Assembly (NCBI GenBank): GCA_949284685.1
Contig: CASDWE010000002.1
Location: 596,106 to 660,105, forward strand
DNA length: 64,000 bases
Direction: 5' to 3'
From: an uncultured bacterium
GTDB taxonomy: Bacteria > Bacillota_I > Bacilli_A > RFN20 > CAG-826
A model generated the notes under the pieces. The model searched no databases, was not told the DNA's origin, and saw only the letters and a list, made by a program, of their open reading frames with translations. A program made the translations under genes and the position numbers. Positions 11,420 to 64,000 of the stretch are shown piece after piece (positions within the stretch are counted from its first letter, which is position 1; each line of letters opens with the position of its first letter).

Positions 11420-11421
11420 TT

Positions 11422-43159: not shown

Positions 43160-43553
43160 CGCCTTCATAGCAATGATTGTTTGTGTCATGTCTTTTCAAA
43201 TATTTACTACGACATATCAATTAAGCGGAATTAACAAGACTCTTATAAATATGCCTAAATCTATCATAGAAAATTCTATTCCATTAGAGGGTGAAGAAAA
43301 TAATTTTATTCCAACAATTGATAAAACGCTATTACAAGAAAATGCAAACGAATATTTTAAGAAAAATTTATCTAGATATACAAACGAATATAAATTGCAG
43401 TACTTATTTTATGATAAAGATACAAATCGACCATGCATTATTAAAAATTGCAGTGGTGTAAGAATTACTTTGACTTGCAAAATTTTACAAATTTTTAATT
43501 ATAGTCAAACAATGTATTACGAAATTATAAAAGGAGATTTATGGACAGCTTAA
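43152..43553 (+). CDS. Small protein with an N-terminal hydrophobic segment (possible pseudopilin/pilus accessory protein)
   Basis: There is a GGAGG RBS. The N-terminus is MINAFIAMIVCVMSFQIF. It overlaps its neighbours. Confidence 0.3.
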   Translation: MINAFIAMIVCVMSFQIFTTTYQLSGINKTLINMPKSIIENSIPLEGEENNFIPTIDKTLLQENANEYFKKNLSRYTNEYKLQYLFYDKDTNRPCIIKNCSGVRITLTCKILQIFNYSQTMYYEIIKGDLWTA

Positions 43554-46848: not shown

Positions 46849-46924
46849 GCCTACTTAGCTCAGTCGGTAGAGCTATCGGCTGTTAACCGATCGGTCGTGG
46901 GTTCGAGTCCCTCAGTAGGCGCCA
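46849..46924 (+). tRNA. tRNA-Asn, anticodon GUU
   Basis: The acceptor stem gcctact/agtaggc pairs perfectly. The anticodon arm is atcgg-ctGTTaa-ccgat and the T-loop is ttcgagt, with an encoded CCA. Confidence 0.75.
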
Positions 46925-46929
46925 ATTTT

Positions 46930-47006
46930 GGCCCGTTGGAGAAGTGGCTTAACTCATATGCCTTTCACGCATACACTCATGGGTTCGAATCCCGTACGGG
47001 TCACCA
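46930..47006 (+). tRNA. tRNA-Glu, anticodon UUC
   Basis: The acceptor stem ggcccgt/acgggtc has one G-U pair. The anticodon arm is tatgc-ctTTCac-gcata and the T-loop is ttcgaat, with an encoded CCA. Confidence 0.75.
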
Positions 47007-47019
47007 TTAGAAAGATACT

Positions 47020-47050
47020 CGCTAGAATTGTAATGATTCTAGCGTTTTTT
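47020..47050 (+). terminator. Rho-independent terminator after the tRNA-Asn/tRNA-Glu pair
   Basis: cgctagaat-tgtaatg-attctagcg has a 9-bp perfect stem and is followed by TTTTTT. Confidence 0.55.
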
Positions 47051-47274
47051 CATTATTCATAGGCATTTTTATTACTTTTTATAAGTTTTAAATATCTATG
47101 AAGTAGAATTTTTGACTTTAATACATATCAAAAATGCAAAAATGTGATACAATAAAAGCATTATTTAATGATAAGTTTTTATTTGAATTAACTATTGACG
47201 TTATCTTTAATATGTAATAAATGCCTGATTTCAAATAATAATTATTATTGAAGGAAAGATTGATTGACTAATTT

Positions 47275-48237
47275 ATGACTCAAGACGAAAAATTGATATA
47301 TTTAAATGAAATTGTTAAAAATAATTTTACAAGTGAATATAAGGGCCCTTTAATTTTGTATAAATATAGACCATTTGATGAGTATACTTTTGAAATGCTA
47401 GATAATGATTATATTTTCTTGTGTCCAGCCGAAAAAGAAGATGATGAAACTGAGTGCTTAACTACAACGAATCTTAATGAAATGTTAGATCCTAAGACTG
47501 GTAATTTATCAAAAAAATACTTAAATAAAATCGTTAGTTTGATAAAACCTAGTTCAACCGATAAGAATTATGAAATTGCTAAAGATAAAGTTTTTGAAAT
47601 TGCTGATAAAGAAGGTACTAATCCAATAATTTTTAATAAAGATTTTGCTATAGAACTTAAAAAAATGGCACCAGAAGGTACAGATGTTGGTCCAATAATA
47701 AAGGCAATTGAAAACATACCAGAAATGCTTAATAAGCCGGAAATGAGCAAAACTCTTGAACCAGCCTTCAAATTAGCAATTGATGCAAGAAAGAAAATTG
47801 GTATATGTTCATTAGCTGAAACAAATAATATAGATTATATGTGGAAGAATTACGCTCAAGAATCTTCTGGCTATTGTATTGAATATGACTTAAATGATTA
47901 TGAACTAGTAAAGAATATTTTACCTGTTATTTATCAAGATGAAAGAGAAACTAATATAATAGTTCAGTTTACAGGCACTATGCTAGGCTTACTTATATGT
48001 GCTATCAGCAAAGGATTAATACCTGCAGATGCGTCACACTTTATTAGATTATTCTTAACAAAATATAAGAAGTGGGAATATCAAAATGAGTGGAGATATA
48101 TAGGTAGTGCTAATGACAAGCCTAAGGCTCCAAAAGTAAAAACAATTTACTTAGGAAAGAATGTTACTGCTGAGAACGAAATAGAAATGAGAAAATATGC
48201 AGCTTTAAAGAGCATACCAGTTATAAAACTTAATTAG
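47275..48237 (+). CDS. DUF2971-like protein (defence-island associated), tentative
   Basis: The N-terminal region LILYKYRPFDEYTFEMLDNDYIFLCPAEKEDDETE resembles the ...lyKYrs...N-DpfE signature of the DUF2971 family. Confidence 0.45.
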   Translation: MTQDEKLIYLNEIVKNNFTSEYKGPLILYKYRPFDEYTFEMLDNDYIFLCPAEKEDDETECLTTTNLNEMLDPKTGNLSKKYLNKIVSLIKPSSTDKNYEIAKDKVFEIADKEGTNPIIFNKDFAIELKKMAPEGTDVGPIIKAIENIPEMLNKPEMSKTLEPAFKLAIDARKKIGICSLAETNNIDYMWKNYAQESSGYCIEYDLNDYELVKNILPVIYQDERETNIIVQFTGTMLGLLICAISKGLIPADASHFIRLFLTKYKKWEYQNEWRYIGSANDKPKAPKVKTIYLGKNVTAENEIEMRKYAALKSIPVIKLN

Positions 48238-48249
48238 GGAGGAAAGGCT

Positions 48250-49410
48250 ATGAAAATCCATAATATTCATATACATTTTGATTTTGGAAACTGTCTTGTG
48301 ATAAGAAACGATACTCCATTGCTTGATTGTTATCAAATCCAAAAAGATAATGCTAATGCAGCATTAATTGATAAAATTGAAAAAGAAACAAGTGGTAAGT
48401 TTGTATATTTCTTAATTGATATAAATCAAGCAAAGAACGTAAAAAGAAATATTTATATTGGAAAAACAAACAGCTTGATGAATCGAATTATCAGTCATAG
48501 AAAGAATAAAGACTGGTGGAATACGATTATCGTATTTGGTAACAAGTATTTATCTTCAGATGACATAGATGCTATTGAAAAGCTTCTTATTGAGGAATAT
48601 GAAAATTCTGATCTTTATACAATCAAAAATGATGTGGGATCTAATGCTAAATTAAGTGAGCAACATAATGATTATAGAGAATACATTGTTGATATTATGG
48701 ATTTTCTATCTTATGGAGTTACTAAAACTGTCATTACTCCTGAGACTAAAACTAATCAAGTGGTTATTCAAACAGCTGCTCAACCATTATCTAATTCTAG
48801 TAGACAAGAATCATTTAAATTTTCAATGTTAGATATAAAACCTGGTGAGATACTTTCATTTATTAACAATGATAAAGTAACTTGCGAAGTTGTTGATGAT
48901 AAGAATGTTAAATATAAAGGGAAGTTATATTCTTTAAGTTCTTTGGCAAAAGAATTATTGAATACTAATGTTCCTAAAAGAGGAACTGATTATTTTTTAT
49001 ATAAAGGTAAGACTTTAAGAGTTTTAAGAGATGAAAAGAATGGAATACAAGTTTCTGATGTTGAAAAAACTAATAATTGGATTATTTCTTGTAATAAAGA
49101 GTTCTATGATTTAGATAATGCATTAAACGAAATGAAAATTATTGATTTTAAACAAAATGCTAATGTTGAAGCTGGTAGTAAAGTATATATTTATTCATCA
49201 GGTGAAGATAAAAAATTAGTTTATATAACTGAAGCTGTTGTAGTTAATAAACCAGAACAGACTATAAATGACGATAAATATATAAAGAATAAGAGTGGTT
49301 ATGCTGATTCTAATAGATACATGGAACTTAAGCTAGTAAAAAAACTCGAATCTGATAAATTATCATTATCTGATTTAAAGAAAAATGGACTTAGAGGTAA
49401 CTTGCAATGA
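48250..49410 (+). CDS. GIY-YIG nuclease-family protein with a C-terminal extension (DUF4357-like), tentative
   Basis: FVYFLIDIN...NIYIGKTNSLMNRIISHRKN fits the GIY...YIG...R...H spacing. There is a GGGAGG RBS. Confidence 0.5.
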   Translation: MKIHNIHIHFDFGNCLVIRNDTPLLDCYQIQKDNANAALIDKIEKETSGKFVYFLIDINQAKNVKRNIYIGKTNSLMNRIISHRKNKDWWNTIIVFGNKYLSSDDIDAIEKLLIEEYENSDLYTIKNDVGSNAKLSEQHNDYREYIVDIMDFLSYGVTKTVITPETKTNQVVIQTAAQPLSNSSRQESFKFSMLDIKPGEILSFINNDKVTCEVVDDKNVKYKGKLYSLSSLAKELLNTNVPKRGTDYFLYKGKTLRVLRDEKNGIQVSDVEKTNNWIISCNKEFYDLDNALNEMKIIDFKQNANVEAGSKVYIYSSGEDKKLVYITEAVVVNKPEQTINDDKYIKNKSGYADSNRYMELKLVKKLESDKLSLSDLKKNGLRGNLQ

Positions 49411-49481
49411 CCTTGTAGAGTCCCTGTTGAATTACAAGCATATATAGATTTTATTATTAAGTAGAAAGGTGGTGAGACGAT

Positions 49482-51149
49482 ATGTCTTTATTTAAAGAAA
49501 AACCGATATTATTTGAAACAATGTACTTCAAAGGTGGAGATTATGCAGGTGCTTTCTTTTTAAAGAATGTCGTTGACAATCTTTCTTATATTGAAACAAC
49601 TTTATCTTCGTTTGATTACTCAATTAATTCTATTGAAGATTTGTTTGATTTTTTGTGGTTGTCAGACTTTATAGAGATGGCAAATGAATTAGATATATTT
49701 AAAATCGATGAGGATATTAAAACAAGAATTCGTAATCTTGCTGATTCTATATATACTAATCCAAAAGAGTTTATAAAGTTTATTAATAATGATCCTGAAT
49801 TGGTTTTTACAAAACAAAATATTAATAAACCAATGTATTGGCATCTTTACTTACCGAGAATGTTAAATCTATGCTTTAACAAATATTCAACATCATTGAG
49901 ACAAAATGTTTTTGACTTCATAGAAGAAAATCTATATTTGAATGTATTATCATCATTTGATGAGTACCAAAAGTATTATCTAAAACATAAAGAATCATTT
50001 AAAAAGTTATTTAATTCTTTGAAAGAAACCAGACCATTTGATGACCAGATTTATAAAAACTTTTTATTAAAAAAGAATGATATTATAGATCTCGAATTCT
50101 TAAAAGAACAAGCCACATTTATATGTGAAAGAGCATATGATGAAATAATAAAAATGGGGTTAGATTCAGAAAATAAAGAAATTATGCAAGCAGTTAATTT
50201 TTTTGATGAATATTATGAACTTGCTCGTTTTTATAAACTTAAATGTGCAAATAAATATAGTGCCTATAAACCAAAAATAGAAAAAGTGTTAAATGATTAC
50301 ATTGTTAAGCATGGTCAACATATGGATTTTGGTCCTATAGATTTAAAACCAGCGCTAGATATTTTTGAAAAATCAGATGATGTATATAGATTTTTTCAAC
50401 TAACACATAGCATGAAAGATGATAAATACTATAACAATTTAAATAATGTATTTGAAACTACTCCGCCTGATGGTTTATCAGAATTATTTCCACCGAGAGG
50501 TAAAGTTGGTAGTGAGAATTATCCTATCTATAGACAGGATCATATTGATTTATATCTTTCGATTAATTCGAGTATTTTAAATATGATAATAGTTCATCCA
50601 AAGTTATCTGTTGATTTTTCGAATTATATCGGTGCAATCTGCTCTCATGTTCAAACTAACTATTTTGATGATCAAATCAATATTTTCAAAGAAATCGGTG
50701 GAAGTTATGAGATGATTAGTAATCTTTATATGCTTAGAACAAAGAAGCAGAGTGACTCTTTATTGTATAAAGCATTATGTAACGGATGCTGTGTAAATTT
50801 ATGTGGAACCATTGAAAAGATACTAAGAAATATAATAATTAAAGAAGAATCAGACAATGTTTACATTGATGAAAGTAAACTCACATTAGGTCAAATTTTT
50901 AAAAGAACGCATAATTTATCATCAATTTCAAATGGTATTAAATACTATTTAAAATACATATTAATGACTGATGAAGAGACTTCACCAATAAAAGAAAAAA
51001 GACCAGGTAGGGATATAAGAAATTGGCAGATGCATAACGCAAATGATAAGTATGATAAAACAAGTTATCAATTATGCGTTGAACTATTCTATTTAACTAT
51101 ATCTCTTGTAGTTGATTTAGTTGTAGTATCGTTAAAATACGACGAGTAG
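49482..51149 (+). CDS. Hypothetical protein with a C-terminal HEPN-like Rx4H motif
   Basis: The 555-aa product has a C-terminal ...RPGRDIRNWQMHNANDKYD... (R-x4-H) motif, similar to the motif in the 58195 gene. Confidence 0.4.
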   Translation: MSLFKEKPILFETMYFKGGDYAGAFFLKNVVDNLSYIETTLSSFDYSINSIEDLFDFLWLSDFIEMANELDIFKIDEDIKTRIRNLADSIYTNPKEFIKFINNDPELVFTKQNINKPMYWHLYLPRMLNLCFNKYSTSLRQNVFDFIEENLYLNVLSSFDEYQKYYLKHKESFKKLFNSLKETRPFDDQIYKNFLLKKNDIIDLEFLKEQATFICERAYDEIIKMGLDSENKEIMQAVNFFDEYYELARFYKLKCANKYSAYKPKIEKVLNDYIVKHGQHMDFGPIDLKPALDIFEKSDDVYRFFQLTHSMKDDKYYNNLNNVFETTPPDGLSELFPPRGKVGSENYPIYRQDHIDLYLSINSSILNMIIVHPKLSVDFSNYIGAICSHVQTNYFDDQINIFKEIGGSYEMISNLYMLRTKKQSDSLLYKALCNGCCVNLCGTIEKILRNIIIKEESDNVYIDESKLTLGQIFKRTHNLSSISNGIKYYLKYILMTDEETSPIKEKRPGRDIRNWQMHNANDKYDKTSYQLCVELFYLTISLVVDLVVVSLKYDE

Positions 51150-51184
51150 TCTTGCATTTGTTTTTTATATTAATGAGGTAGAAT

Positions 51185-51901
51185 ATGAAATCATTGAATG
51201 AAATAAAGTTATCTATAATAGATGAATTATCTAAGAACAAAGCGTATGATTTACCAAATATATGTTCTGCACTAGGGTTGGAAGATGGTACTGAAAACGA
51301 AGCCTATAATAGTAAAAGAATGTATGTGAGTAAACGAATTAATCATCTTTCTAAAGTTGAAATAAATAAATTACTATATGCAATGAAAGAAAATTTTGAT
51401 ATTGACCTATTACCAGAAGAAAACTGTAACTTTGATAATCTAAAAAAAGTCTCTGAAGAAATAAATAGTGACTATATAAATGTACAAATAGAATTAATGA
51501 AAAAATTTCAAAAAGAAAATCCAACAGAGGCTATTGGTAAAGCGAAGGAACTTTTAGAAACTATTTGTAAAACCATTTTAAAAAGATTAAATATAGAATT
51601 CGATGAATCATGTGAAATCCAAGCCTTAGCAAAAGCAACTTATAAAGCCTTGAAATTATCTCCAGATGAAGTAAAGGATGGCCCTTTATCTCAAACAATA
51701 AAACAAATATTAGGTGGATTGAATAGTATTTCAAGTGGTTTGGCTAGTTTGAGAAACTCTTATGGAAGTGGACATGGCAAGGACGAAAGTTATAAGGGGC
51801 TTCCAGAAAGATATTCAAAGTTAGCAATTGGAAGTGTATCTACACTAGTGGTGTTTCTATGGGAAACAATGCTATATCAAATTGATAAAAATCAAGAGTA
51901 A
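51185..51901 (+). CDS. Abi_C-like abortive-infection protein (HEPN superfamily), tentative
   Basis: The C-terminal ...SSGLASLRNSYGSGHGKD... fits the Abi_C pattern R-N-x5-H-G. There is a GAGG RBS. Confidence 0.5.
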   Translation: MKSLNEIKLSIIDELSKNKAYDLPNICSALGLEDGTENEAYNSKRMYVSKRINHLSKVEINKLLYAMKENFDIDLLPEENCNFDNLKKVSEEINSDYINVQIELMKKFQKENPTEAIGKAKELLETICKTILKRLNIEFDESCEIQALAKATYKALKLSPDEVKDGPLSQTIKQILGGLNSISSGLASLRNSYGSGHGKDESYKGLPERYSKLAIGSVSTLVVFLWETMLYQIDKNQE

Positions 51902-52132
51902 ATAATTGTAGTGATTTTATTCTTAAACTTGCATTTAGTAGAAACTAATGGAATAAGTATGTTAAAACCTGTCGTTTGGGTGAAAAAAATAACATTAGCA
52001 AATTTAAGGTCAAATAACTGTAGAGTTATTGTAGGTTCAGTAAATTGATAAAATAACTCTTTTGTTATATAATTATACCGATAATCTAAAGTACCAGAAA
52101 GTTGAGGAAGGGCTCAAAGGAGGTACTTGTGT

Positions 52133-52363
52133 ATGGATTATCAAAAAGCCATATTAGATAAAGAAGCAACAAGTATTAAACTTAGGTCCCTTAGAATCAA
52201 AGCTAATCTAACACATGATAGACTAGCTGCATTACTTCAACTAAACACACCTCGTGTGATTTATGATTGGGAATGTGCAAAGAAGATGCCTAATGTTGAA
52301 AACTTGTATAATCTGGCTCTAATATTTAATATGAAAATGGAGGATTTACTTGTGACCAAGTAG
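52133..52363 (+). CDS. XRE-family helix-turn-helix transcriptional regulator
   Basis: The HTH_3 core LRSLRIKANLTHDRLAALLQLNTPRVIYDWECAKKMPNVENLYNLALIF is present. An AAGGAGG RBS lies 9 nt upstream of the ATG at 52133. The track's 52127 start is a TTG. Confidence 0.7.
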   Translation: MDYQKAILDKEATSIKLRSLRIKANLTHDRLAALLQLNTPRVIYDWECAKKMPNVENLYNLALIFNMKMEDLLVTK

Positions 52364-52672
52364 ATCCTTCTTTTTTATTTTTGAACTATAGTACATTTTT
52401 TATTCCTGGATTTATTGTTAAAATAATAACAGTATCTATGAATATGTCCGTTGATATTGAAATAAATTTCAATAATGTGATATAATTATATAAAGATACA
52501 TATGCAGGTTCTGAAACAGTGGAGTAAGAACTTTACCTATATGAAATGTTGGAACAAATCCTATGGTTGGGATATACCATATGAGGAGTAAACCAATAGT
52601 TAAAAGCTAATTTTCAAGAGTGGTATTGCGTGTCTAAACAAAATAACATAATAAGAGGAAGAATGTTATTGA

Positions 52673-52708
52673 AGTGGCGATAGGCTAATACCTACCGTCA
52701 CTTTTTTG
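52673..52708 (+). terminator. Intrinsic terminator (attenuator-like) at the end of a ~370-nt leader, 7 nt upstream of the operon RBS
   Basis: agtggcgatagg-ctaata-cctaccgtcact forms a 12-bp stem with one G-U pair and one mismatch, followed by TTTTTTG. The AAGGAGG RBS and the ATG at 52731 follow. Confidence 0.5.
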
Positions 52709-52730
52709 TATATAAGGAGGTGTCAATAAC

Positions 52731-53660
52731 ATGAAAAAGAAAAGCAAAGTCATCGGTAAAGACTATGATAAATTAGAAAAAGATAATAGATTCGATCAGA
52801 TTGATTATTATGGTCTTATTGCTAAAGATGGCAGAATTAAAATTGACACAAAGAGATATAAAAAATTCTTTACTATTCCTGATACTAAAATAGAAAGAAG
52901 ACAATCTGTTTATTACCTTCCAACAAAGCAACATAGATCCGATTATAAATGTAATTGGTTCAGAGATTTGTTAGCAGGTTATAAACAATTGTGGTTTAGA
53001 GAATATAAAAGTTTTATTGATAGCATTAAGACACCAAAGCAAGTAGAAGATAGTGCGAGATTAGATTATTTAGCTGATGGTGTTCTTGAGTACGATGAAG
53101 CTAATGCAAAAGCATTTATTGCAGGTATGAAAAGAAGTGCTGACTATAAAGTGATTATTAAATCTTTATATGCTCAATTCTTCCATCAAATGATGTCTAG
53201 CATTGATGCTTTATGTTTAAAGATGTTAACTGCCTGTGGTTATAAAGAAGAAGATTATACTAAGAAACAATTTGATATTTATATTCAAGGTTTGCAAGGT
53301 AATAATGCATTATCATTCAGACAATACGATAATTATCAATTATATGATAGAGCATTTACTGTTTGGAACTTCCTAAAGCATAACTCTCTTAGATCATATA
53401 AGATCTTGAAGCAATGGTATCCTAAAATGGTATGGGATCCAGAAGAGAAATATCAAAATGGTGAATCTGCACTTACTGTTGTTAAATTAGATGAGAAATT
53501 CATCTTAGATTGTATTGATAACTTACATTTATTCTTTGATGAATTATGTGCGAGAGCTTTTGGTGAAAATGCTGATGATGCACAATGGGATTATGATGAT
53601 TACTTCTTAGACGTCGTACAAGATGAAATAGATGTTATTGTTAATCCACTAGGTATATAG
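52731..53660 (+). CDS. Hypothetical protein, first gene of the helicase operon
   Basis: The 309-aa product has a strong AAGGAGG RBS and no recognisable catalytic motif. Confidence 0.45.
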   Translation: MKKKSKVIGKDYDKLEKDNRFDQIDYYGLIAKDGRIKIDTKRYKKFFTIPDTKIERRQSVYYLPTKQHRSDYKCNWFRDLLAGYKQLWFREYKSFIDSIKTPKQVEDSARLDYLADGVLEYDEANAKAFIAGMKRSADYKVIIKSLYAQFFHQMMSSIDALCLKMLTACGYKEEDYTKKQFDIYIQGLQGNNALSFRQYDNYQLYDRAFTVWNFLKHNSLRSYKILKQWYPKMVWDPEEKYQNGESALTVVKLDEKFILDCIDNLHLFFDELCARAFGENADDAQWDYDDYFLDVVQDEIDVIVNPLGI

Positions 53661-53672
53661 GAGGGCGGAAGA

Positions 53673-56600: not shown

Positions 56601-58202
56601 ATTTCTCTAATTCCAGAAGTTATTAGAACTGTAAAAGATAGAATTATTGAGATTAAATCTTCAACGATAGAAGTTCTTAATAAAGAATTACGTACTATTG
56701 AAGATAAACAAGCAGAACTAGATAAAGAAATAGATTCATTAAAGCAACAAATAAAAGTAATTAATGAAAATATTATTGATATTCAAGAAAGAAATGATGT
56801 TAAAGATATTCAAGAAGCTAAATACAAGCTTGAGAATGATTTAATAAAATTCTTTAAAGATTTTGAAATTGCTGAACCATATAGAGATGTAGATGAAGGT
56901 CTAAAGATTATTAAACGTAAATGGTCTGAGCTTGAAGATGATTTCCAAGCGAAAGAACAAGAAAATAGAGAAAAAATACCTATGTATGAAAAGATCGCAA
57001 ATTACATCACTAGTGAAGATGTAATTGAAGAAGATAGAAAGGTATTTACTAAAGACTTGTTTGAAAATGCTAATGTATTTGGTATTACATGTACATCTAA
57101 CGATAGATTCAGTGGAAGAAATGTTGATGCATTATCTGAATATAATATCGATGAGATTGATATTAAGTCTGTAGGTATTGATGTAGTTATTATTGACGAA
57201 GTTTCTAAATCAAGTTTTATAGATTTATTGATACCTATTCTTTATGGTAAAACAGTTATTCTAGTTGGAGACCATAGACAATTACCTCCAATGTATGAAT
57301 TCTCAAAATTAAGAGATGATGATTTTGAAGGATTAGATGAGACAATTATTAATAAAGAAATTAATAAAGAGTTCACTAAATTGTATGAAGAGTGTTTCTT
57401 CAAAACTCTATTTGAAAGAATACCAGATAGTTATAAAACTATGTTAGTTCAACAATATAGATGTCATGAACATATTATGAATGTATTTAACCATTTCTAT
57501 AAAGGCGAATTAAAACTAGGTTTTGCAGGTCAAAACAATAATAAACATCATAATGTTAAATTACTATCAAATGGTAGAAATATTATCGAACCAGATAAAC
57601 ATATTTATTTTGTTGATTGTAAGCAAAATGAAACGCATGAAGCTGATTCAACATCTATGTACAATACTGGTGAAGCTAGAGTTGTAGTTGAATTAATCAG
57701 AAAATTAAATACATACTTTAAATCGCATCCTGAACTTGAAAAGTTAAGCATTGGTGTTATTTGTACTTACGGAGACCAAGCTAGAAAAGTAAAAGAATTA
57801 CTTAAGAGTGAAAAGGTTAAAACTGATGCATTTAAAACTGACGTTGAAAAGATGATAGTCTCTACAGTCGATGATTTCCAAGGCGATGAAAGAGATATTA
57901 TTATCTTGACTACAGTTAGAAATCCTGAGAATCCAAAAAGAAGTAATCCTGGATTCATCTTGGCTTATCAAAGAATTAATGTTGCCTTATCTAGAGCTAG
58001 AAGAATGCTTGTTATGGTAGGTAATAGAAAATACCTAGAAGAAAAAGGTGTGATAGATCTACCAGATGTCTATGGTCGTGTTGGTAAAGAGCAACGAAAC
58101 TTTAGAGTTTATGAAGAAATCCTATCTACTATTGAACGATATGGTAAGGTCATTGAGGATATTGATGTATTAGATGATAAGGAGGCGAGAATAAATGGAT
58201 AA
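53673..58202 (+). CDS. Giant Upf1/DNA2-like superfamily-1B helicase (1509 aa) with an unassigned ~640-aa N-terminus and a ~500-aa Lys/Glu coiled-coil insertion
   Basis: Motif I is LLQGPPGTGKTQ and motif II is VVIIDEVSKSSF. VGDHRQLPPM is motif III and QYRCHEHI is motif IV. VSTVDDFQGDERDIIILTTVR and YQRINVALSRARRMLVMVGN are motifs V and VI, the AAA_11/AAA_12 architecture. There is a GGAGGG RBS. Confidence 0.8.
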   Translation: MAYLFLSFTDRLNNGSNFKSELYNQSLTEQFEYIQKRIPLERQVSSFRSFIEECFTTGMMKKYYISCPNFLREKESSKSGKVQYLDNVVVRPELTLSMRKVLPDNQNIILIGKIVEGGKQKHLEVKGIQLIDSSMSSPNDIVISAAACNSFSEEKRASMYGGTFAVNIWSVPNVPYEDTVFTPNFVYELIQSCWTVSKPEQIRQSYDIWNKYIEFRKYYLQEQSKRNFKLDRAMFVEAYAVNRKDYKKNASIYDEYLLDGRDEFKWGDMIVLSEKIEDAEEFPLIRLDIERNRKAFNEAKVTKRGKLVNEEERKIRSLSSDNVFITAIDPESKSQHNDRQVTFGELLNAGYALGDRFKIVSYDIEPTEHLEELDQVYTKDIDNSYKNIDAKFEKIIKEEVKQAVTLYEKELNKQAKERIDSYKNELDSSLEQDVLENKDKNIISLIDKKKKEIEANVKKNNKQDKKEKDNEYALRIKALIEDEISKIDVKSYYVERNSKLLQDNANKIEVELKRLLAQYEVKKNSEITNKYKDDVRNEKIKSKEELDAKLKSDKEKAIEEETIIRFSLYFRLGDSNNFISDKQKKVVDSCEYIVYDNRAEKAKISRQEAALDNFYSGYVKNPYLSTYLFNPEELDTVKAEPSDWIWYLDSLNEKQKEAVRKAVSSNGIFLLQGPPGTGKTQVIAETVAQLIKKGKKVLISSETHKAIDNVFERLPKIAEIVPIRLIPSNNDKKKENEYDPKFLVDNFYLNISSNMKKAVNRYKNFEKNKIEFAENFDKLKLAKAKIEKSQKVLDKANEEIKKFEDNAKDINSKISVLNDKKDLVRIDIDILRRTKRHIENDNLRPDEDVKVDLIVDVRKKLEPLFEKDVYIDDDLGQLLKNINLIKNDEIERELAVINPESNKTILEVKKNDLKAELNKYVDELGDIINPNNEEKVEEIKNELRKVLKELKAESVDISLSDLKLNKIFNYSYLVANISLIPEVIRTVKDRIIEIKSSTIEVLNKELRTIEDKQAELDKEIDSLKQQIKVINENIIDIQERNDVKDIQEAKYKLENDLIKFFKDFEIAEPYRDVDEGLKIIKRKWSELEDDFQAKEQENREKIPMYEKIANYITSEDVIEEDRKVFTKDLFENANVFGITCTSNDRFSGRNVDALSEYNIDEIDIKSVGIDVVIIDEVSKSSFIDLLIPILYGKTVILVGDHRQLPPMYEFSKLRDDDFEGLDETIINKEINKEFTKLYEECFFKTLFERIPDSYKTMLVQQYRCHEHIMNVFNHFYKGELKLGFAGQNNNKHHNVKLLSNGRNIIEPDKHIYFVDCKQNETHEADSTSMYNTGEARVVVELIRKLNTYFKSHPELEKLSIGVICTYGDQARKVKELLKSEKVKTDAFKTDVEKMIVSTVDDFQGDERDIIILTTVRNPENPKRSNPGFILAYQRINVALSRARRMLVMVGNRKYLEEKGVIDLPDVYGRVGKEQRNFRVYEEILSTIERYGKVIEDIDVLDDKEARING

Positions 58203-60327
58203 GTTTAAATTAGAAACTTCTATGCAATTTCCATTCTTTAAATTGAATGAACTTGCTATATATTCAGAAGTTAAAAAGCCTAGTGGTGTAGCCTATATTT
58301 TACTAGTACTTATCAGTGAGTCAAAAAATAAAAATGATAGATTATCTAAAGTGCTAGAGAATTTTGGTATACCTAAATCTTTACATTATATTTTTGCTGA
58401 TAATGTTCAATACCTTATGAATCAGGGAATACTAGAAGAATTTAACTTTTACAAAACTGAATTTGATAGTTATCTTATAGGATCATTTCAATTTACTTCA
58501 AAAGGTAAAAAAATATTTGCAGAAGAATCTATTCCTACAGGTGTTAATAAAGAATTAAAGGTTGCAGTCTTTTATGATATTGCAATGAATGCATTATCTT
58601 TAAAAATGGATGTTGATTTAGATCCTAAACCATTAATGGACTGTGCAATTACACCTGAATTTATGAATTCATTTAAATGTGAAAAGAATGTAGAAAATTT
58701 CTTAAACCTTCAAAAAGGTAAAGGAATAGGCATAAAGAAAGAAGAAATAATTACTAGCGTAGAGTTATTAAATCAAGAAAATTGGATTGGAAAATATGAT
58801 TGTGACATGAATATCAAAGGCGATGATATAGAAATCAAATTTGATGAAGCGTTACTACAAAAATTCTTTGATGCTAATTACAATCAAGAAATGGTTAATT
58901 TAGCCATATCATATAAAAACAAGTTCAAGTTTAAATCTTCTTTTAAAGATAATCTAAAACTAAGTAGTTATGGTTTTGATAGAATTGCTGGAATTATTAT
59001 TCCAAAAGAAATTGATGATGTGTTAAAGCAAAAAAATCAATTATTACTTACAAAAGGTAATTATAAAACTTCAAATGGTTATATGGTTACTAGTGCTGAT
59101 TCACTTGCTGGATTTGATGATACAATTGAATTCATACAAGTTGATATGCATGATTCGATTTATGCATATATTCCAGGCAACTTTAATTTTAATAATAGTA
59201 TATTTGGAACTATTACAATTCCTTTGGCTGTTAAAATTAAACTAACTGATGAGGAATTGAAAAATGTTATTAGACCATATGTACTTTCTTTATCTTCATA
59301 TAGCGAAGATAACTTTAGAGAGCTTGTTAAGGTAACAAATATCACTGATGACTTAAAGTTAGCAAAAGAGATTATTGAAGGTTATGTTAATAAAAATGCA
59401 GAAAGCAATATTGTCTTGTTAAATGAAATGAAGCCATATGCAATATCTAATGGTGGTATTTCAAATATCTATAGAGAGCTATTAGAAAAGAACTATAACA
59501 ATTATATGGATAATTTAACTGAAGACAATCTTGAAACAGCATTAAAGATAACTGCTTCAGTTCCTAAATTCCTAAATATTCCAAATAAGGACGTTTTATC
59601 TAAAATCTTTAAGAATGTAAAGGCTAGAAGTGAATTGAAGATTTATGAAACTTTAGTAAATAAAGGATTTGATAAATCACTAGTTGTTCTATATGTTAAC
59701 CCAGTAAATGAAATACTTAAGTTGAGAGATTCTGAAGAGAAGAGTCTTATTGATTTAATTAATTATGATGATGCTTTGGAAGAAATGAAACGCATAACAA
59801 ATATAAGTGATTATAAGAGTTATTTGTATGATGAAGAAAAGATAAATCATAATGAATTTAAAACAAATTATAACAAAGCATTCAATCTTCAAAAGAATAT
59901 TTTAGTGTTTAAAAATGGCAATGAAGCATTATTTGCAAATTATGATGGTTTTATGAAGCTGTTCTCTACAATTAATGATGATATTAATATGGTTGAGTCA
60001 GCTCTTAAAAATCCTAATAATCTGAAACTAGATTTAATTGAAAAGAAAATATCTAGTGGTGAATATCAATTTGTATTTGTTAATCTATCTGCAAAATTAG
60101 AAACAATTCTTAAAAACAAGTATAAATTAGAAGGTAAATTATCTGACATGCTAAATGATGCAAGATCTAATGGTATAATCGATAAAAAGATTGTCAGTGA
60201 TTTGCATGATTTTAGAGATAACAGAAATGCAAATGTTCATCCTGAAGATAGAACGTCTAACTATGATGCAAATGATCTCAGAAGATGGGCAAAAGAAATC
60301 TTTGATTTGGAGGTGAAAAAGAAATGA
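58195..60327 (+). CDS. Hypothetical 710-aa protein with a C-terminal HEPN-like (DUF4145-type) Rx4H motif
   Basis: The C-terminal ...LHDFRDNRNANVHPEDRTSNYD... (R-x4-H) is present. There is an AAGGAGG RBS. It overlaps the helicase gene by 8 nt. Confidence 0.45.
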   Translation: MDKFKLETSMQFPFFKLNELAIYSEVKKPSGVAYILLVLISESKNKNDRLSKVLENFGIPKSLHYIFADNVQYLMNQGILEEFNFYKTEFDSYLIGSFQFTSKGKKIFAEESIPTGVNKELKVAVFYDIAMNALSLKMDVDLDPKPLMDCAITPEFMNSFKCEKNVENFLNLQKGKGIGIKKEEIITSVELLNQENWIGKYDCDMNIKGDDIEIKFDEALLQKFFDANYNQEMVNLAISYKNKFKFKSSFKDNLKLSSYGFDRIAGIIIPKEIDDVLKQKNQLLLTKGNYKTSNGYMVTSADSLAGFDDTIEFIQVDMHDSIYAYIPGNFNFNNSIFGTITIPLAVKIKLTDEELKNVIRPYVLSLSSYSEDNFRELVKVTNITDDLKLAKEIIEGYVNKNAESNIVLLNEMKPYAISNGGISNIYRELLEKNYNNYMDNLTEDNLETALKITASVPKFLNIPNKDVLSKIFKNVKARSELKIYETLVNKGFDKSLVVLYVNPVNEILKLRDSEEKSLIDLINYDDALEEMKRITNISDYKSYLYDEEKINHNEFKTNYNKAFNLQKNILVFKNGNEALFANYDGFMKLFSTINDDINMVESALKNPNNLKLDLIEKKISSGEYQFVFVNLSAKLETILKNKYKLEGKLSDMLNDARSNGIIDKKIVSDLHDFRDNRNANVHPEDRTSNYDANDLRRWAKEIFDLEVKKK

Positions 60328-61412
60328 GCCAGCAAGTAACTGTTGATTACCAAGGTGTATCTATTCAAGTGCAAGCTAAATGTGATACAGCTGTTCATTC
60401 GCTATGTCAAATAGATAAAGTGCTTGATAGAATACATAAAACAGCAGATAAGCTAGAAACATCAAAAGTAAAAGAATATGAAGCTTATTTGCAAAAATCC
60501 AAGGAAACAATCAAAGAAAAGATTGAAGCGTTTAAGAAGACTCTAGAAAAATATAAAGAAGCTAGGGCTTATTCGGTTAATAATCATCAACCAGATTATC
60601 AACAATTCATTAATTTTACTAATAAAGTTCAAGCTGAATCACAAGAATTAATTAGAACAGTAAATGAGTTAACTGGTTCTAAACTTGCAGTAATTGATCA
60701 GATGATTGATGAAGGATTATTAAATGCTGGACAAGAAACTACTCAAGCTATGCTTGATAAATTACATGGTGTTATTTCGATTTCAGATGATGTTTTATTA
60801 AAGATTAATAGTATAGAAGATGTTTCATTAAGAGAATTAGCTTATAGAGAAATTCTTAAAAATGATAAACTTAGTTTTGATGAAGCAATTACTAAAGCAC
60901 AAGAAGAATATGATGTTCTCTTAGGTAAACAAACAAAGAAAGTTATTCAAGAATATAAAGAAGAACTTACTGCTAAGGGTATTACTGTTGAAGAATTAGA
61001 TAAAGCTAAATCTATTGATGAAGCTAATGCTATTGCTAATGAAGCAATTACTGATGAAACAGTAAGAAAAGAAACTTTAAAAGTTATTATTAAAGCAATC
61101 AAAGATAGAGGATTCATTGTTGATACAAAGAAGAATCTTAAAATCGATAAAGAAAGAAATATTGTTAAGCTTGTTGCATTAAAGGCATCTGGACAAATGG
61201 CTGAATTTGAAATTCAACTTAATGGTAAGTTTATGTACCACTTTGATGAATATGAAGGTCATGCATGTAAGAAAGATATAGAACCATTCTTAGAAGATTT
61301 AAAGAATATCTACGATATCAATATTCTTCATGAAGAAGTAACGTGGGAAAATCCAGATAAGATTCAAACTCAAAAATATCAATACATAAACAAAAATAAG
61401 GGTACTAATTAG
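60324..61412 (+). CDS. Hypothetical coiled-coil protein (362 aa), possible partner of the downstream ClpB-like ATPase
   Basis: There is a GGAGG RBS and a 4-nt overlap with the upstream gene. It has no catalytic motif. Confidence 0.4.
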   Translation: MSQQVTVDYQGVSIQVQAKCDTAVHSLCQIDKVLDRIHKTADKLETSKVKEYEAYLQKSKETIKEKIEAFKKTLEKYKEARAYSVNNHQPDYQQFINFTNKVQAESQELIRTVNELTGSKLAVIDQMIDEGLLNAGQETTQAMLDKLHGVISISDDVLLKINSIEDVSLRELAYREILKNDKLSFDEAITKAQEEYDVLLGKQTKKVIQEYKEELTAKGITVEELDKAKSIDEANAIANEAITDETVRKETLKVIIKAIKDRGFIVDTKKNLKIDKERNIVKLVALKASGQMAEFEIQLNGKFMYHFDEYEGHACKKDIEPFLEDLKNIYDINILHEEVTWENPDKIQTQKYQYINKNKGTN

Positions 61413-61423
61413 GAGGTAAACAT

Positions 61424-63238
61424 ATGTCTTTACAAAATAGTTTTAATAAAATCAGAAGAAATGCTGGAATTAAAAAATGTGTCATGATTGATGGCAATGT
61501 TGGTGACGTTTATTTAAATGAAAAAAATAATATCGTCACATTAAGAGAATATCTTGAAGCAATGTTCAAAGATATGGATTATCAAGACATTGTTTACTGG
61601 GATAGAGTTGAAGGTGCAACTGGTGCAATTGATAAGCTTACTTTAACAGATGAAGTTGAAGTAGAAGGTGATGCATATGATTTAGGTGATGAAGAAGAAA
61701 CACCTAAAGCACAACAAGGCTTATTTAAATCACCAGCTGAAATCTTAAATGTTGTTTATAAGAATGTAATTGATAAAAAGAAAAAAGTAGCTTTTATTAT
61801 CAATTGGTCTGAATATTTATTCAGTGTTAATGGGTTAAGCGATGATGAAAGACAAAATATTACTTTATTAGGTAAAGCTCTAAAGGATAGAAAAGTAGAT
61901 TATTTAAACACTGACTGCAACGAAAGTGTTGTTGTCATTATTTTAAATAAAGCGTCTGGATTACCATTATCTTTCTATCAAGGAAATCCTGAAGTTGAAA
62001 TTGTAACATTACAAAAACCAGATAGAGAAGAAAGAAAACAAATGATTCAAAAGATAGAAGATTCATTTGAAGTTAGATTAAAATCTGGTACTAGCTCATT
62101 GCTTGATAATGAAAATATCGATTGTATTGATATGCTTGAAGATTTCACTAATCGTGAGATTATTCAATTATCAAGAATGTCTAGAAAAGAAGATAAGATG
62201 ACTTTTGATAAGTTATTCTATTTATTCAAATATGGTGAAAAAGAAAATCCATGGGAAAAATTAGAACAATCTAGAGTTAAGAATATCAAAAAAGAATTAT
62301 CTGACAGAGTTATAGGTCAAGAAGAAGCAATTGATAAAATTGAAAAGACTGTTGTTAAAGCATATATGGGTTTAACAGGCCTTCATAAAACTTCATCTAG
62401 ATCAATGCCAAAAGGTGTATTCTTCTTTGTTGGTCCTACTGGTGTAGGTAAAACTGAGCTTTCAAAGGCTTTAGCTAAATTCTTATTTGGTGATGAACAA
62501 GCTTGTATTAGATTTGATATGTCTGAATATGCTCAAGAGAATAGTGATCAAAAATTAATTGGTGCAGCTCCTGGATATGTTGGATATGAAGAAGGTGGCC
62601 AATTAACTAATGCAATTAAAGAACATCCATTCTCAGTTGTATTATTTGATGAAATTGAAAAGGCTGCAAAACCTAATCCACGTATTCTAGATATTTTCTT
62701 ACAAATTCTAGAAGATGGTCGTTTAACAGATTCTAAAGGTGAAACTGTATACTTCAGCGACACAATTATAGTATTCACATCTAACTTGGGTGCTAACCAA
62801 GTTCAAGCATCATCTGATAAAGAAGGTGTAGCAAAAGAATTCATTAAGATTGTAAAAGATTACTTTGATAATGAATTAAAGAGACCAGAATTATTAGGAC
62901 GTATCGGATACAATAATATCGTTCCATTTAATTTCATTCAAGATAGAGATTTCCAAGTTAAGATTTGTAAGAACAAACTAAAACCAGTTATCAGGGGAAT
63001 AGAAGAAAAATATAAACTTGAATTGGAATTTGAGAAAGAATTGGAAGCTATCGAATATATCTTAAAAGCTGTAGATTCATCTAAAGGTGGTCGTGATATT
63101 TTAAATGCTATCAATGATAGATTATTAGATCCACTAGCAATGTTCTTATTTGAAAATAAAGATGAATTACGTTCTTTAAAAGGAAGCAGAATTATTACAA
63201 AGGTAACAAAAGATGGATTCAGCTTTGACTTCGATTAA
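61424..63238 (+). CDS. ClpA/ClpB-D2-like AAA+ ATPase with an unassigned ~300-aa N-terminal domain
   Basis: RVIGQEEAI...FFFVGPTGVGKTELSKALA...LIGAAPGYVGYEEGGQLT...VVLFDEIEKAAKPNPRILDIFLQILEDGRLTDSKG...VFTSN is the canonical ClpB second nucleotide-binding domain, with sensor and D2-small domain. There is an AGGAGG RBS. Confidence 0.75.
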   Translation: MSLQNSFNKIRRNAGIKKCVMIDGNVGDVYLNEKNNIVTLREYLEAMFKDMDYQDIVYWDRVEGATGAIDKLTLTDEVEVEGDAYDLGDEEETPKAQQGLFKSPAEILNVVYKNVIDKKKKVAFIINWSEYLFSVNGLSDDERQNITLLGKALKDRKVDYLNTDCNESVVVIILNKASGLPLSFYQGNPEVEIVTLQKPDREERKQMIQKIEDSFEVRLKSGTSSLLDNENIDCIDMLEDFTNREIIQLSRMSRKEDKMTFDKLFYLFKYGEKENPWEKLEQSRVKNIKKELSDRVIGQEEAIDKIEKTVVKAYMGLTGLHKTSSRSMPKGVFFFVGPTGVGKTELSKALAKFLFGDEQACIRFDMSEYAQENSDQKLIGAAPGYVGYEEGGQLTNAIKEHPFSVVLFDEIEKAAKPNPRILDIFLQILEDGRLTDSKGETVYFSDTIIVFTSNLGANQVQASSDKEGVAKEFIKIVKDYFDNELKRPELLGRIGYNNIVPFNFIQDRDFQVKICKNKLKPVIRGIEEKYKLELEFEKELEAIEYILKAVDSSKGGRDILNAINDRLLDPLAMFLFENKDELRSLKGSRIITKVTKDGFSFDFD

Positions 63239-63767
63239 GTTTAATGTAGCATATATAAAATTATGTACTAAAACTGAAGGTCCATATAAGAGATGCTGTA
63301 TTTGGTTTCAAGGATGTAACATTAATTGTAGAGGATGTTGTAATAACGATTTACAACCATTAGTTCCAAATCATATAGTTACATTAAAAGAACTTATCGA
63401 TATAGTTAAAGAAGCTAAAGATAAGTTTGATATAGAAGGTATAACTCTTAGTGGTGGTGAACCTTCTTTACAAACTGGTTTAAAATTCTTCAATAATGAA
63501 ATTCATAAATTAGGATTAGGAATTATTATGTTTTCAGGAAAAAATAAACAACTTCTTGACAAAGAACTAGTTGAATCTGTTGATTTATTAATAGATGGTC
63601 CATTTATTGAAGAACAACTTGATGATAAAAGAGTTTTATTAGGTTCTAAAAATAAACGATTATCTTTTATTACTGATAGATATAAAAAAGAAGAAAATTA
63701 TTTCAATAATCCTATAGCTATAGAAGAAGTAACAGCTGAGGATTATATCTTCATAAATGGAGACTGA
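63213..63767 (+). CDS. Small radical-SAM / 4Fe-4S activase-like protein (NrdG/QueE-like)
   Basis: The cluster motif FQGCNINCRGC is CX3CX2C. ITLSGGEP (SAM-binding) is present. The 184-aa size is typical of NrdG-type activases. Confidence 0.7.
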   Translation: MDSALTSIKFNVAYIKLCTKTEGPYKRCCIWFQGCNINCRGCCNNDLQPLVPNHIVTLKELIDIVKEAKDKFDIEGITLSGGEPSLQTGLKFFNNEIHKLGLGIIMFSGKNKQLLDKELVESVDLLIDGPFIEEQLDDKRVLLGSKNKRLSFITDRYKKEENYFNNPIAIEEVTAEDYIFINGD

Positions 63768-63769
63768 TT

Positions 63770-64000
63770 ATGGATAAAAAGAGAATAGAAAGTGAAATGA
63801 GAGAATTAGAACTTAAAATTCATTATCATTTCAATGACATATCTTGGCTTGCTAAAGCTATGGGTTCTATAAAAGTACCTGTTCCAGGTCAAGGAAAGAA
63901 TGGTTCTGAATATTCTAATGAAGGCTTGGCTACTGTTGGTGATACTATATTAAAATCAGTTATTGCTGATAAGTTTTATAGAGAAGGAATAAGAACCAAA
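63770..64000 (+). CDS. Divergent RNase III-like protein, N-terminal 77 aa; the gene continues beyond the window
   Basis: LELKIHYHFNDISWLAKAMGS...SEYSNEGLATVGDTILKSVIADKFYREG aligns with the RNase III N-terminal LxxxLGYxFxDxxLLxxALTHxS...NERLEFLGDAxLxxVVxxxLY. The ERLEFLGD signature has diverged to EGLATVGD. The ATG is 2 nt after the radical-SAM stop. Confidence 0.6.
   Translation, partial: MDKKRIESEMRELELKIHYHFNDISWLAKAMGSIKVPVPGQGKNGSEYSNEGLATVGDTILKSVIADKFYREGIRTK

Follow-up and report, generated by a model that had tools for sequence, protein, structure and literature searches.

A strain-variable defence island behind tRNA-Glu(UUC) in an uncultured Bacilli lineage: probable phage cargo and a candidate helicase, ClpB-like and radical SAM operon

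How does a dense run of defence-type genes come to lie directly behind a tRNA gene with no integrase beside it? This question is raised by a stretch of 64,000 nucleotides (hereafter referred to as the window) from an uncultured bacterium of the CAG-826 lineage (assembly GCA_949284685.1, contig CASDWE010000002.1, positions 596,106 to 660,105, forward strand). A preliminary description of positions 47007–64000 had listed there a DUF2971-like gene, a GIY-YIG nuclease, a 555-amino-acid protein with a HEPN motif (p555), an Abi_C-like protein, an XRE regulator and a helicase operon, following a tRNA-Asn/tRNA-Glu pair, and had left the mode of insertion open. Here, I propose that the site is a hypervariable defence hotspot, that the genes form a mosaic island of 17.7 kb of which the larger block derives from a temperate phage, and that the five conserved proteins of the helicase operon may form an RNA-sensing defence machine. 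This account as a whole appears fairly probable; its parts differ in strength, and are discussed in turn below.

Contigs and loci used for comparison are labelled L008–L044, and L002 designates the fetched sequence that continues past the window end; sequence downstream of the window was included up to 73.7 kb. Domains and families were assigned with Pfam, PADLOC, NCBIfam and PHROG profiles, tRNAs with ARAGORN and Rfam, and breakpoints with blastn.

Borders and occupants of the tRNA-Glu site

The backbone upstream of the island consists of a ComG-type operon and acpP, and ends in the two tRNA genes. Both are on the forward strand: tRNA-Asn(GTT) at 46849–46924 (ARAGORN; Rfam tRNA, 68.9 bits), and tRNA-Glu(TTC) at 46930–47006 (ARAGORN and Rfam), whose 3′ CCA end forms the left border of the variable region. 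A hairpin followed by a run of T, resembling an intrinsic terminator, is found 3′ of the pair on the same strand (47020–47044). It is specific to the island variant present in the window, and other variants of the site possess a different hairpin in its place. The tRNA adjacency and the terminator of the preliminary description are thereby confirmed, as is its run of co-oriented defence-type genes: eleven forward-strand open reading frames span 47275–63767, and a twelfth starts at 63770 and crosses the window end, with the DUF2971, Abi_C, XRE and helicase assignments among these supported by profile matches.

Homology to all other strains ends on the left within 47007–47019. The blastn breakpoints against these strains lie at 47008 and at 64723, where homology to strains with an empty site returns, and the island therefore extends from 47009 to ~64722 (17.7 kb), with its right border 0.7 kb past the window end. 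Ending the island at 64000, as had been done initially, cuts off the rest of the last operon gene (63770–64270) and the segment up to this border. The genes beyond it encode a PDC-S01-like ATPase, a GGACT protein, a ferredoxin-like protein and glycosyltransferases.

The preliminary description had noticed by eye neither an integrase or recombinase nor a direct repeat of the tRNA 3′ end, and this holds over a longer distance. Library scans of the genes between 47 kb and 73.7 kb revealed neither an integrase nor a recombinase domain, and a blastn-short search for an attR-like copy of the tRNA-Glu/tRNA-Asn region gave nothing longer than 10 nucleotides downstream to 73.7 kb. As the window ends inside an operon, one might suppose that an intact integrative element continues past it, with its integrase and attR just out of view. 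However, the island ends at 64722, and with neither a recombinase domain nor a tRNA repeat up to 73.7 kb this possibility is refuted for the 10 kb downstream, and is highly improbable overall.

All the data come from metagenome-assembled genomes, and the junctions could in principle reflect an assembly or binning artefact, that is, a chimeric contig. Yet both of them (tRNA to island, and island to backbone) recur at 99.3–100% identity in ERZ16268261, ERZ16268233, ERZ16268140, two Logan assemblies and ERZ17292905. Because they recur in independent assemblies, the junctions are not assembly artefacts, and a chimera can hardly be the explanation.

I then considered composition, for the two blocks into which the island can be divided, block A (47275–51901) and block B (51902–64713). 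The GC content was rejected as an island signal, since its profile is flat and uninformative: ~28% throughout, with 0.27–0.28 in the island against 0.29 in the backbone, and equal values for third codon positions. What differs is codon choice, along with the strength of the ribosome-binding sites. The preference for AGA, AAG and GGT that had been noted by eye is borne out by the numbers. AGA accounts for 0.82–0.87 of the arginine codons in the island and for 0.52 in the backbone, AAG for 0.28–0.32 and 0.11 of the lysine codons, and GGT for 0.53–0.61 and 0.41 of the glycine codons. The per-gene codon distance to the backbone is 0.086–0.141 in the island (backbone mean 0.081, standard deviation 0.017), and 0.057–0.098 for the genes right after it. 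Codon usage is thus off in both blocks, while the genes directly past the island are backbone-like. The ribosome-binding sites, initially described as uniformly strong GGAGG, follow a mixed pattern. A Shine-Dalgarno match of at least 5 nucleotides is present in 6 of the 8 genes of the helicase cassette, in keeping with that description, and in 33% of backbone genes; "uniformly strong" is nonetheless an overstatement, because only 2 of the 4 genes in the first block possess such a match, and the very first gene has none.

The content of the site was compared at ten places encoding an identical acpP protein and in two further GTDB genomes, identified with a ComGA-like scan. Contigs of the same species, with flanks 94–99% identical, hold at least six different contents after tRNA-Glu. 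Three of them (L014–L016) possess the same island as the window. In L011 and L013, 250–480 bp are followed by an AAA_14/DUF4143 gene, representing an "empty" site, and in L012 the DUF4143, GGACT, ferredoxin-like and 464-amino-acid genes are gone as well. L008 encodes type II methyltransferases and the Hachiman protein HamB (1e-269), L018 an insertion sequence element and TrkA genes, and L019 polysaccharide genes, whereas L017 has a prophage-like content, with a Big_2 protein, two large serine recombinases, a cI-like helix-turn-helix (HTH) protein, a tyrosine recombinase and a Bro/ANT protein. In the more distant L009 (59% ComGA identity), a PvuRts1I-like restriction enzyme, two PDC-S01 genes and SoFic are found. 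Across these contigs, at least five unrelated sequences begin directly after the CCA end of tRNA-Glu, and at the right border three unrelated upstream sequences abut the same nucleotide. The occupants are enriched in defence genes, with the PADLOC matches of the window island, and HamB, methyltransferases, a methyl-directed restriction enzyme, SoFic and PDC-S01 elsewhere. That contigs of the same species hold different cargo at this place agrees with the island interpretation of the preliminary description, and sequence comparison supports the view that the site after tRNA-Glu(UUC) is a hypervariable defence hotspot, with a strain-variable island in the window.

The shared right-hand joint (64723–64760; ~11511–11550 of L002) precedes ACTTTCAGGTTACCACTTCATACCACTTCATACG, which contains a tandem CCACTTCATA repeat. 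It may be a recombination site, or the mere edge of a conserved promoter region. It also opens a second variable segment (64723–69010; L002 11511–15798), encoding a PDC-S01-like AAA_14/DUF4143 ATPase (2.4e-58), the GGACT and ferredoxin-like proteins and a 464-amino-acid protein; codon usage there is backbone-like, yet the segment is absent from L012, in which homology returns at 69011.

Further variation was noted at other positions in the window. A SoFic-like Fic protein (29151–30218; PADLOC SoFic, 2.5e-42) is encoded directly after another tRNA gene, tRNA-Glu(ctc) at 28775–28849, and its 68%-identical copy in L009 is the one found in the tRNA-Glu(ttc) hotspot. A 565-amino-acid open reading frame with no family match (38381–40078) varies in length from 561 to 605 amino acids among strains and is split in L011 and L015; overlapping blastn segments at ~39416–39606 suggest an internal repeat that expands and contracts. 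Finally, the gene for the ComGA-like T2SSE ATPase (43541–44545) is intact in the window, but split in L011 (53 and 294 amino acids) and L018 (132 and 162 amino acids), a difference that may come from errors of assembly or from the competence pilus decaying in part of the strains.

Origin of the island

Block B comprises a repeated element (labeled X, described below), the XRE gene, a seven-gene operon, a second copy of X, and the start of a phage late regulator gene. Positions 51902–64713 are collinear with positions 3734–16523 of the IMG/VR contig L027, at 91–95% DNA identity. The order in L027 is a SpbK-like TIR gene, X, the XRE gene and operon, X, and a late transcriptional regulator of 137 amino acids (phrog_36, 5.6e-18), after which an HNH endonuclease, a small terminase, a ParB/methyltransferase gene and a large terminase (3.6e-113) follow. 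Of the late regulator, no more than the first ~45 codons are retained in the window, with 95.6% amino-acid identity to a full-length gene of 135 amino acids in L033, for which weak matches to DUF1492 and sigma-70 region 4 were obtained, and the gene is cut ~9 nucleotides before the backbone junction. The cassette itself (52060–64317) is also 90.4% identical in DNA sequence to contigs with unrelated flanks. No match to the cassette DNA or to its second core protein, p710, was found in INPHARED or PLSDB.

This suggests that what remains in block B is a temperate phage's accessory ("moron") slot, the remainder having been lost. The phage, complete or as a fragment, would have entered the tRNA-Glu hotspot, and all but its defence cargo would subsequently have disappeared. 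Decay of the prophage best explains why no integrase is present. Because long direct repeats are not left by serine recombinases, the missing tRNA repeat would also be expected if such an enzyme had been at work. Recombinase-bearing prophages do use the hotspot, as L017, from the same species, carries one there. The insertion mechanism, which the preliminary description had left open, is thereby answered in part: most of the island would correspond to a collinear accessory piece of a temperate phage, ending in a truncated late regulator. I regard this account of the island, including its origin as a phage remnant, as likely.

Several points nonetheless weigh against it. No structural, lysis or integration genes and no att sites were identified at the site in the window genome, and both ends of the supposed prophage would need to have been lost. 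No close relatives of p555 and of the AbiJ-like protein, both encoded in block A, were found in IMG/VR; since it has no detectable phage relatives, block A may have come separately, and two or more events would then be needed. In addition, the observed pattern could also be produced by homologous recombination or natural transformation, with no integration of a phage. According to this explanation, the cargo was swapped via the conserved flanks, by transformation or transduction, and no site-specific phage integration took place in the lineage. The ComG competence-pilus operon, with its T2SSE ATPase, indeed lies directly upstream, in many variants the breakpoints coincide exactly with the ends of conserved sequence, and there is neither a recombinase nor an att repeat; hotspots without an identifiable mode of mobilisation have also been reported in E. 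coli and P. aeruginosa (PMC10121019). However, the right junction cuts a phage gene mid-way, with no flanking homology to the empty site, and looks like an illegitimate deletion, and a strain of the same species holds a recombinase-bearing prophage in the hotspot. Homologous exchange and prophage decay are moreover compatible, as spread within the species could use flanking homology. Exchange without any phage integration is unlikely, although its probability is far from negligible.

The segment could alternatively be ancestral backbone that other strains have lost. Its GC content equals that of the backbone, it contains no mobility genes, and the island is identical in at least 3 independent assemblies, all of which would fit. 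Against this stand the codon usage, which departs from that of the backbone in both blocks and returns to it past the island, the 90% DNA identity of the cassette to contigs with unrelated flanks and to the phage contig, and the truncated phage regulator at the island end. What other strains show at the site, moreover, is unrelated cargo and not a simple deletion. Ancestral backbone is therefore very unlikely.

The X element is an intergenic, imperfect direct repeat of ~130 nucleotides that flanks the cassette. Copy 1 (51900–52031, forward strand) marks the left end of the phage-collinear block and shares 94% identity with its positional counterpart in L027, while copy 2 is found past the window end (64287–64417; L002 11075–11205) and is 80% identical to copy 1. 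Two alleles can be distinguished, and the element is present in L027 (3732–3862 and 16098–16228) and in L032–L037. It always directly follows the stop codon of a defence-like gene (AbiJ-like, SpbK-like TIR, PDC-S32, DUF4238 or RNase III-like), and is followed by further cargo or by the phage late regulator. A closing helix of 12 bp, in which three pairs are changed on both sides between the alleles, and three invariant hairpins are predicted by RNAalifold; 97% of cells are paired in this structure, versus 26–52% when the partners are slid. Because there are only two lineages, this covariation amounts to approximately one event. No real match to X, or to the spacer between the XRE gene and the operon, was found in Rfam. 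Candidate roles for the element are those of a structured RNA, a site of recombination and a promoter/terminator module. A smaller possibility is that, as a structured RNA or recombination site, it delimits exchangeable defence cassettes carried by a family of Firmicute phages.

Divergence between L027 and the window is itself mosaic (L027 13230–16081, window 61424–64270): identity is 99.7% for the ClpB-like protein and 64% for the RNase III-like protein, with 88% for p710 further upstream. This points to recombination within the operon.

Block A starts with a DUF2971 protein (47275–48237, forward strand, as are the other three genes; Pfam 3.1e-06, PADLOC PDC-S31 2e-26, phrog_1762 5e-30). It is followed by a gene (48250–49410) combining a GIY-YIG-like N-terminal nuclease domain with a PDC-S57-like C-terminal region. 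Its initial annotation as a GIY-YIG nuclease is supported by PDC-S14 (7.5e-17), PDC-S57 (7.6e-26) and a phage endonuclease PHROG (2e-4), but the Pfam GIY-YIG match (0.0059) falls below the cut-off. The gene for p555 (49482–51149) comes next, and the block closes with an AbiJ-like gene (51185–51901; PADLOC AbiJ, 4.5e-15), possessing an Abi_C C-terminal domain (Pfam 6.6e-26); AbiJ has been classed as a HEPN family (PMC3710099).

No match for p555 was found in Pfam, PADLOC or NCBIfam, a profile search against PDB sequences was also empty, and Pfam scans of its N-terminus and of the C-terminal part of the GIY-YIG-like protein, as separate sub-domains, gave nothing above noise. The HEPN motif that had been noticed in p555 is nonetheless well founded: it is a C-terminal R-N-x3-H motif (RNWQMH), of which R513, N514, M517 and H518 are invariant across 18 homologues, down to 30% identity. 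By this motif, p555 would be a candidate HEPN RNase.

In three other loci, the homologue of p555 is directly preceded by a DUF2971 gene, and the GIY-YIG-like gene is missing between them. In L038 (1317–3955) the two proteins are 39% and 38% identical to their window counterparts, and the genes overlap by 4 nucleotides; in L040 and L041 (5969–9671) a DUF2971 protein of 587 amino acids is followed by p556, which is 71% identical to p555. These pairs are located in other defence islands, with a type I restriction-modification system, SIR2, and an OLD and UvrD pair. Since a DUF2971 gene always comes before the p555 homologue, the two look like a two-gene unit and a candidate system, into which the GIY-YIG-like gene would have been inserted in the window. 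PADLOC models only the DUF2971 half (PDC-S31) of the pair. It would be a second, small candidate system, which current tools take as single genes or miss.

The helicase operon

All genes of the helicase cassette are on the forward strand. The XRE-family HTH regulator (52127–52363; Pfam HTH_3, 2.6e-06) is preceded by a promoter-like site (52045–52073, TTGATA-17-TATAAT, 11/12), and a terminator-like hairpin (52339–52370) overlaps its stop codon. A second promoter-like site (52457–52486, TTGAAA-18-TATAAT with an upstream TG, 11/12) precedes the operon; both sites are consensus matches only. The operon starts with p309 (52731–53660), an accessory, lineage-specific protein of 309 amino acids with no family matches. 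Five genes, referred to here as the core, then follow. The first encodes a UPF1-like superfamily 1 (SF1) helicase of 1509 amino acids (53673–58202), which matches PADLOC MkoA at 3.1e-93, and the second p710, of 710 amino acids (58195–60327), with a C-terminal HEPN (DUF4145) domain and predicted to be an RNase effector. The third core protein, p362 (362 amino acids, 60324–61412), consists of a helical bundle and a conserved small alpha/beta C-terminal domain. The fourth is a ClpB-D2-like AAA+ ATPase of 604 amino acids (61424–63238; Pfam AAA_2 2.6e-51, and ClpB_D2-small) with a conserved N-terminal domain of 280 amino acids, and the fifth a radical SAM enzyme of the NrdG/PflA activase type, of 184 amino acids (63213–63767; Pfam Fer4_12 8.6e-23, Radical_SAM 1.8e-10). 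An accessory last gene encodes an RNase III-like protein of 166 amino acids (63770–64270, beyond the window end at 64000; Pfam Ribonuclease_3 3e-06, 28.4 bits against a cut-off of 27).

The helicase possesses an uncharacterised N-terminal region of 640 amino acids, followed by AAA_11 (651–815) and AAA_12 (1244–1453) domains. Between AAA_11 and the second RecA lobe, which starts at ~1150, lies a charged helical insertion of ~335 amino acids, poor in proline and glycine, whose coiled-coil nature is deduced from composition only. Its closest solved relatives are IGHMBP2, Sen1, DNA2 and UPF1. The ClpB-like protein further matches NCBIfam ClpB (1.7e-75, far below the cut-off), PADLOC PDC-M37B (1.1e-33) and DolB (1.1e-20). 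For the radical SAM enzyme, the NCBIfam matches to NrdG (2e-17, 63.5 bits against a cut-off of 126) and PflA (54.9 against 232) are both below the cut-off, and the closest solved structure is that of the PFL-activating enzyme (PFL-AE). The RNase III-like protein likewise scores 34 bits for NCBIfam RNaseIII (2e-08), against a cut-off of 166, and the spacing of its C-terminal acidic pair is shifted by one. Sub-domain Pfam scans of the helicase N-terminus and insertion, the ClpB-like N-terminal domain, the N-terminal and middle parts of p710, p309, and the p362 C-terminal domain gave nothing above noise; a p710 profile found nothing among PDB sequences, and a fold search with a model of p362 returned generic helical-bundle matches only.

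The order helicase, p710, p362, ClpB-like protein, radical SAM enzyme was found in 16 loci, including the window, L021–L028, L030 and L042–L044. In L029 the contig ends after the first part of this order, which is thus kept in every relative whose contig reaches far enough. Across these loci, the identity of p710 ranges from 100% down to 20%. Towards the most distant operons, the ClpB-like protein, the most conserved in the operon, is still 54–63% identical and the radical SAM enzyme 40–48%, compared to ~30% for the helicase and 20–30% for p710. Functional motifs are retained throughout: motifs I and II of the helicase are invariant in 8 divergent operons; also invariant are R674, R677 and H682 in p710, C35, C39 and C42 (CX3CX2C) and GGEP (G81–P84) in the radical SAM enzyme, and, in the ClpB-like protein, both Walker motifs (A and B), the GYVG pore loop and a large part of the N-terminal domain. 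The p710 family comprises 184 clusters (E ≤ 1e-3) among 1.84 billion representative proteins.

Around the core, the operon is variable. The XRE gene is present in L021–L025 and L027, and absent from L026, L028, L030 and L042–L044. In L026, L028 and L030, XRE and p309 are replaced by a protein of ~173 amino acids (172–174) as the first operon gene, and a p309 homologue, 30% identical, is found in L029; XRE, p309 and the RNase III-like gene are all absent in L042–L044. In L025 (15659–16075), an unrelated protein of 138 amino acids with a HEPN-type RNHWAH motif replaces the RNase III-like protein, which suggests that the last operon position is an exchangeable RNase slot. Recombinases are neighbours in several loci. 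In L026 (1787–4671) the core directly follows two serine recombinases identified with Pfam (439 and 525 amino acids) and the ~173-amino-acid protein, and two large open reading frames (440–454 and 523–527 amino acids) are at the same place in L028 (1273–4190) and L030 (1951–4831), putative recombinases by size and position only. In L021–L024 a single serine recombinase of 481 amino acids, with a SHOCT_2 gene, lies 215 bp downstream. The taxon labels of the cassette-bearing contigs (Eubacteriales, Christensenellales, Roseburia, Anaeroplasma, Malacoplasma) would point to wide transfer; they were not used as support, because they belong to metagenome-assembled sequences and the flanks of L021–L025 share ~27% GC.

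A tentative functional model can be outlined. In this model, the UPF1-like helicase would sense, or translocate on, phage RNA or replication intermediates, and would control the HEPN RNase effector p710. As a helical adaptor, p362 would link the helicase and p710 and bridge them to the ClpB-like hexamer. The ClpB-like unfoldase and the NrdG-like radical SAM enzyme would together form a very conserved engine, acting on a substrate that would be a protein or a nucleotide; in the lineage of the window, a second RNase would be added by the RNase III-like gene. The expected outcome would be RNA cleavage and abortive infection. The faster divergence of the helicase and p710, compared to that of the ClpB-like and radical SAM proteins, would fit a variable sensor and effector with a conserved engine. 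A UPF1-like helicase followed by the gene for a winged helix-turn-helix (wHTH) nuclease is a described defence theme, which supports the reading of the operon as a defence system (PMC11090510; Mokosh). As a whole this sketch is more doubtful than the account of the island, and I put it forward with less than even confidence.

The model has difficulties of its own. The defence function was deduced purely from sequence, and all hosts are uncultured and known as metagenome-assembled genomes. Nothing matches the N-terminus of the helicase, p309 or the larger part of p710, and for p362, the ClpB-like protein and the radical SAM enzyme the proposed roles are guesswork. A regular-expression scan found no glycyl-radical loop (RVxG[FWY]-type) in any island protein, although a divergent site would escape it. 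The RNase III-like signature, NEGLATVGD, has alanine at the second acidic (Glu) position. Phage carriage, moreover, is equally compatible with a function serving the phage: the operon could be a module for competitor exclusion, counter-defence or phage RNA processing that remained after the prophage decayed. It does occupy the accessory slot of a phage contig and is found in three other IMG/VR contigs, and it adjoins serine recombinases in several loci. However, superinfection exclusion by prophage genes amounts to anti-phage defence from the side of the host, the neighbours of the operon are known defence systems, and the combination of a UPF1-like helicase with a HEPN protein matches described defence modules. 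The distant member in L043 also lies amid housekeeping genes, with no mobile-element genes in view. A phage-serving role is accordingly rather improbable, and the operon is probably an anti-phage system.

Comparison with known systems

Defence islands at tRNA-adjacent integration hotspots have been described in the E. coli pan-genome (PMC10121019) and as core defence hotspots in P. aeruginosa (PMC10250203). The site in the window shares with these its position beside a tRNA and between conserved genes, and a defence content that varies by strain. In both cases some occupants lack a mobile element or recombinase, and prophages are frequent carriers. It differs in its host, an uncultured low-GC Bacilli lineage, in a left breakpoint that falls exactly at the tRNA 3′ end without a duplicated tRNA end, and in an occupant that can be traced to a specific phage slot, bounded by a ~130-nucleotide repeat and a truncated late regulator. 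The island is thus an ordinary member of a familiar class. It would also be an unusually clean case of how an "integrase-less" defence island can originate, in which phage cargo outlasts its prophage and the deletion scar lies inside a phage gene.

Among characterised systems, Mokosh (MkoA and MkoB in type I, MkoC in type II; Millman et al. 2022) combines a COG1112 helicase with a PLD nuclease, and in type I also a kinase domain. The window operon resembles it in having a UPF1-like/COG1112 SF1 helicase as the first large gene of an operon in a defence context, which PADLOC labels MkoA. Its partners are different, namely a HEPN protein, a helical protein, a ClpB-like ATPase and a radical SAM enzyme. 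No PLD Pfam match, MkoB match or HxKx4D (HKD/PLD) motif was found in any island protein, and no Ser/Thr kinase domain in the helicase. The missing nuclease and kinase rule out Mokosh, despite the PADLOC label.

The ClpB-like protein recalls Dodola (DolA/DolB) and PDC-M37, in which a ClpB-like AAA+ protein is also a defence component; the matches cover the AAA+ core (residues ~205–462) only. No DolA (DUF6414) or PDC-M37A partner was detected among the island proteins, and the missing DolA rules out Dodola.

The island also shares features with HEPN-based abortive infection (Abi) proteins. The AbiJ-like protein, p710 and p555 all carry R-x4-H near the C-terminus, conserved across homologues for the latter two, and DUF4145 domains fused to, or encoded beside, helicases have been described (Anantharaman et al. 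2013, PMC3710099). In contrast to the stand-alone Abi proteins, p710 is multidomain and part of a five-gene machine, and p555 belongs to no named HEPN family.

In CoCoNuT systems of types II and III (Bell et al., eLife 2024, PMC11090510), the UPF1-like CnuH carries a helical insertion and is typically followed by the wHTH-nuclease CnuE. In the window helicase, too, the N-terminal RecA-like region contains a large helical insertion; the gene that follows encodes a nuclease domain at its end (HEPN being among the described effectors), a helical protein and an AAA+-type NTPase are part of the operon, and the predicted target is RNA. For an N-terminal wHTH in p710, as compared to CnuE, the support is weak. 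The window operon differs in lacking the McrB-like GTPase CnuB, the McrC-like CnuC and the TerY-P module; for the McrB and McrC families, only a chance-level McrB match (0.0043) was obtained, in the ClpB-like protein. Its NTPase is instead an unfoldase of the ClpB-D2 type, and a radical SAM enzyme belongs to the invariant core; Bell et al. (PMC11090510) mention neither ClpB nor radical SAM. Assignment to CoCoNuT is ruled out by the missing McrBC-type partners, and the helicase and p710 fit only the general theme.

No description of the gene combination (helicase, ClpB, radical SAM, and HEPN or RNase III) was found in the literature searched, in which few subscription journals were covered, and the five-gene operon is apparently rare and undescribed. 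It is possible, if still doubtful, that the five-gene set is a new anti-phage system, in which helicase sensing is coupled to an RNase effector and to an AAA+ protein-threading motor with radical chemistry. That this chemistry would serve, for instance, the modification or activation of a protein or nucleotide substrate is likewise a tentative proposal; such a combination is not known from any characterised defence system. If true, the operon would be tractable for asking what UPF1-like helicases sense in bacteria. An operon of this kind that protects against phage would add activase-type radical SAM chemistry and AAA+ unfolding to the repertoire of RNA-sensing immunity.

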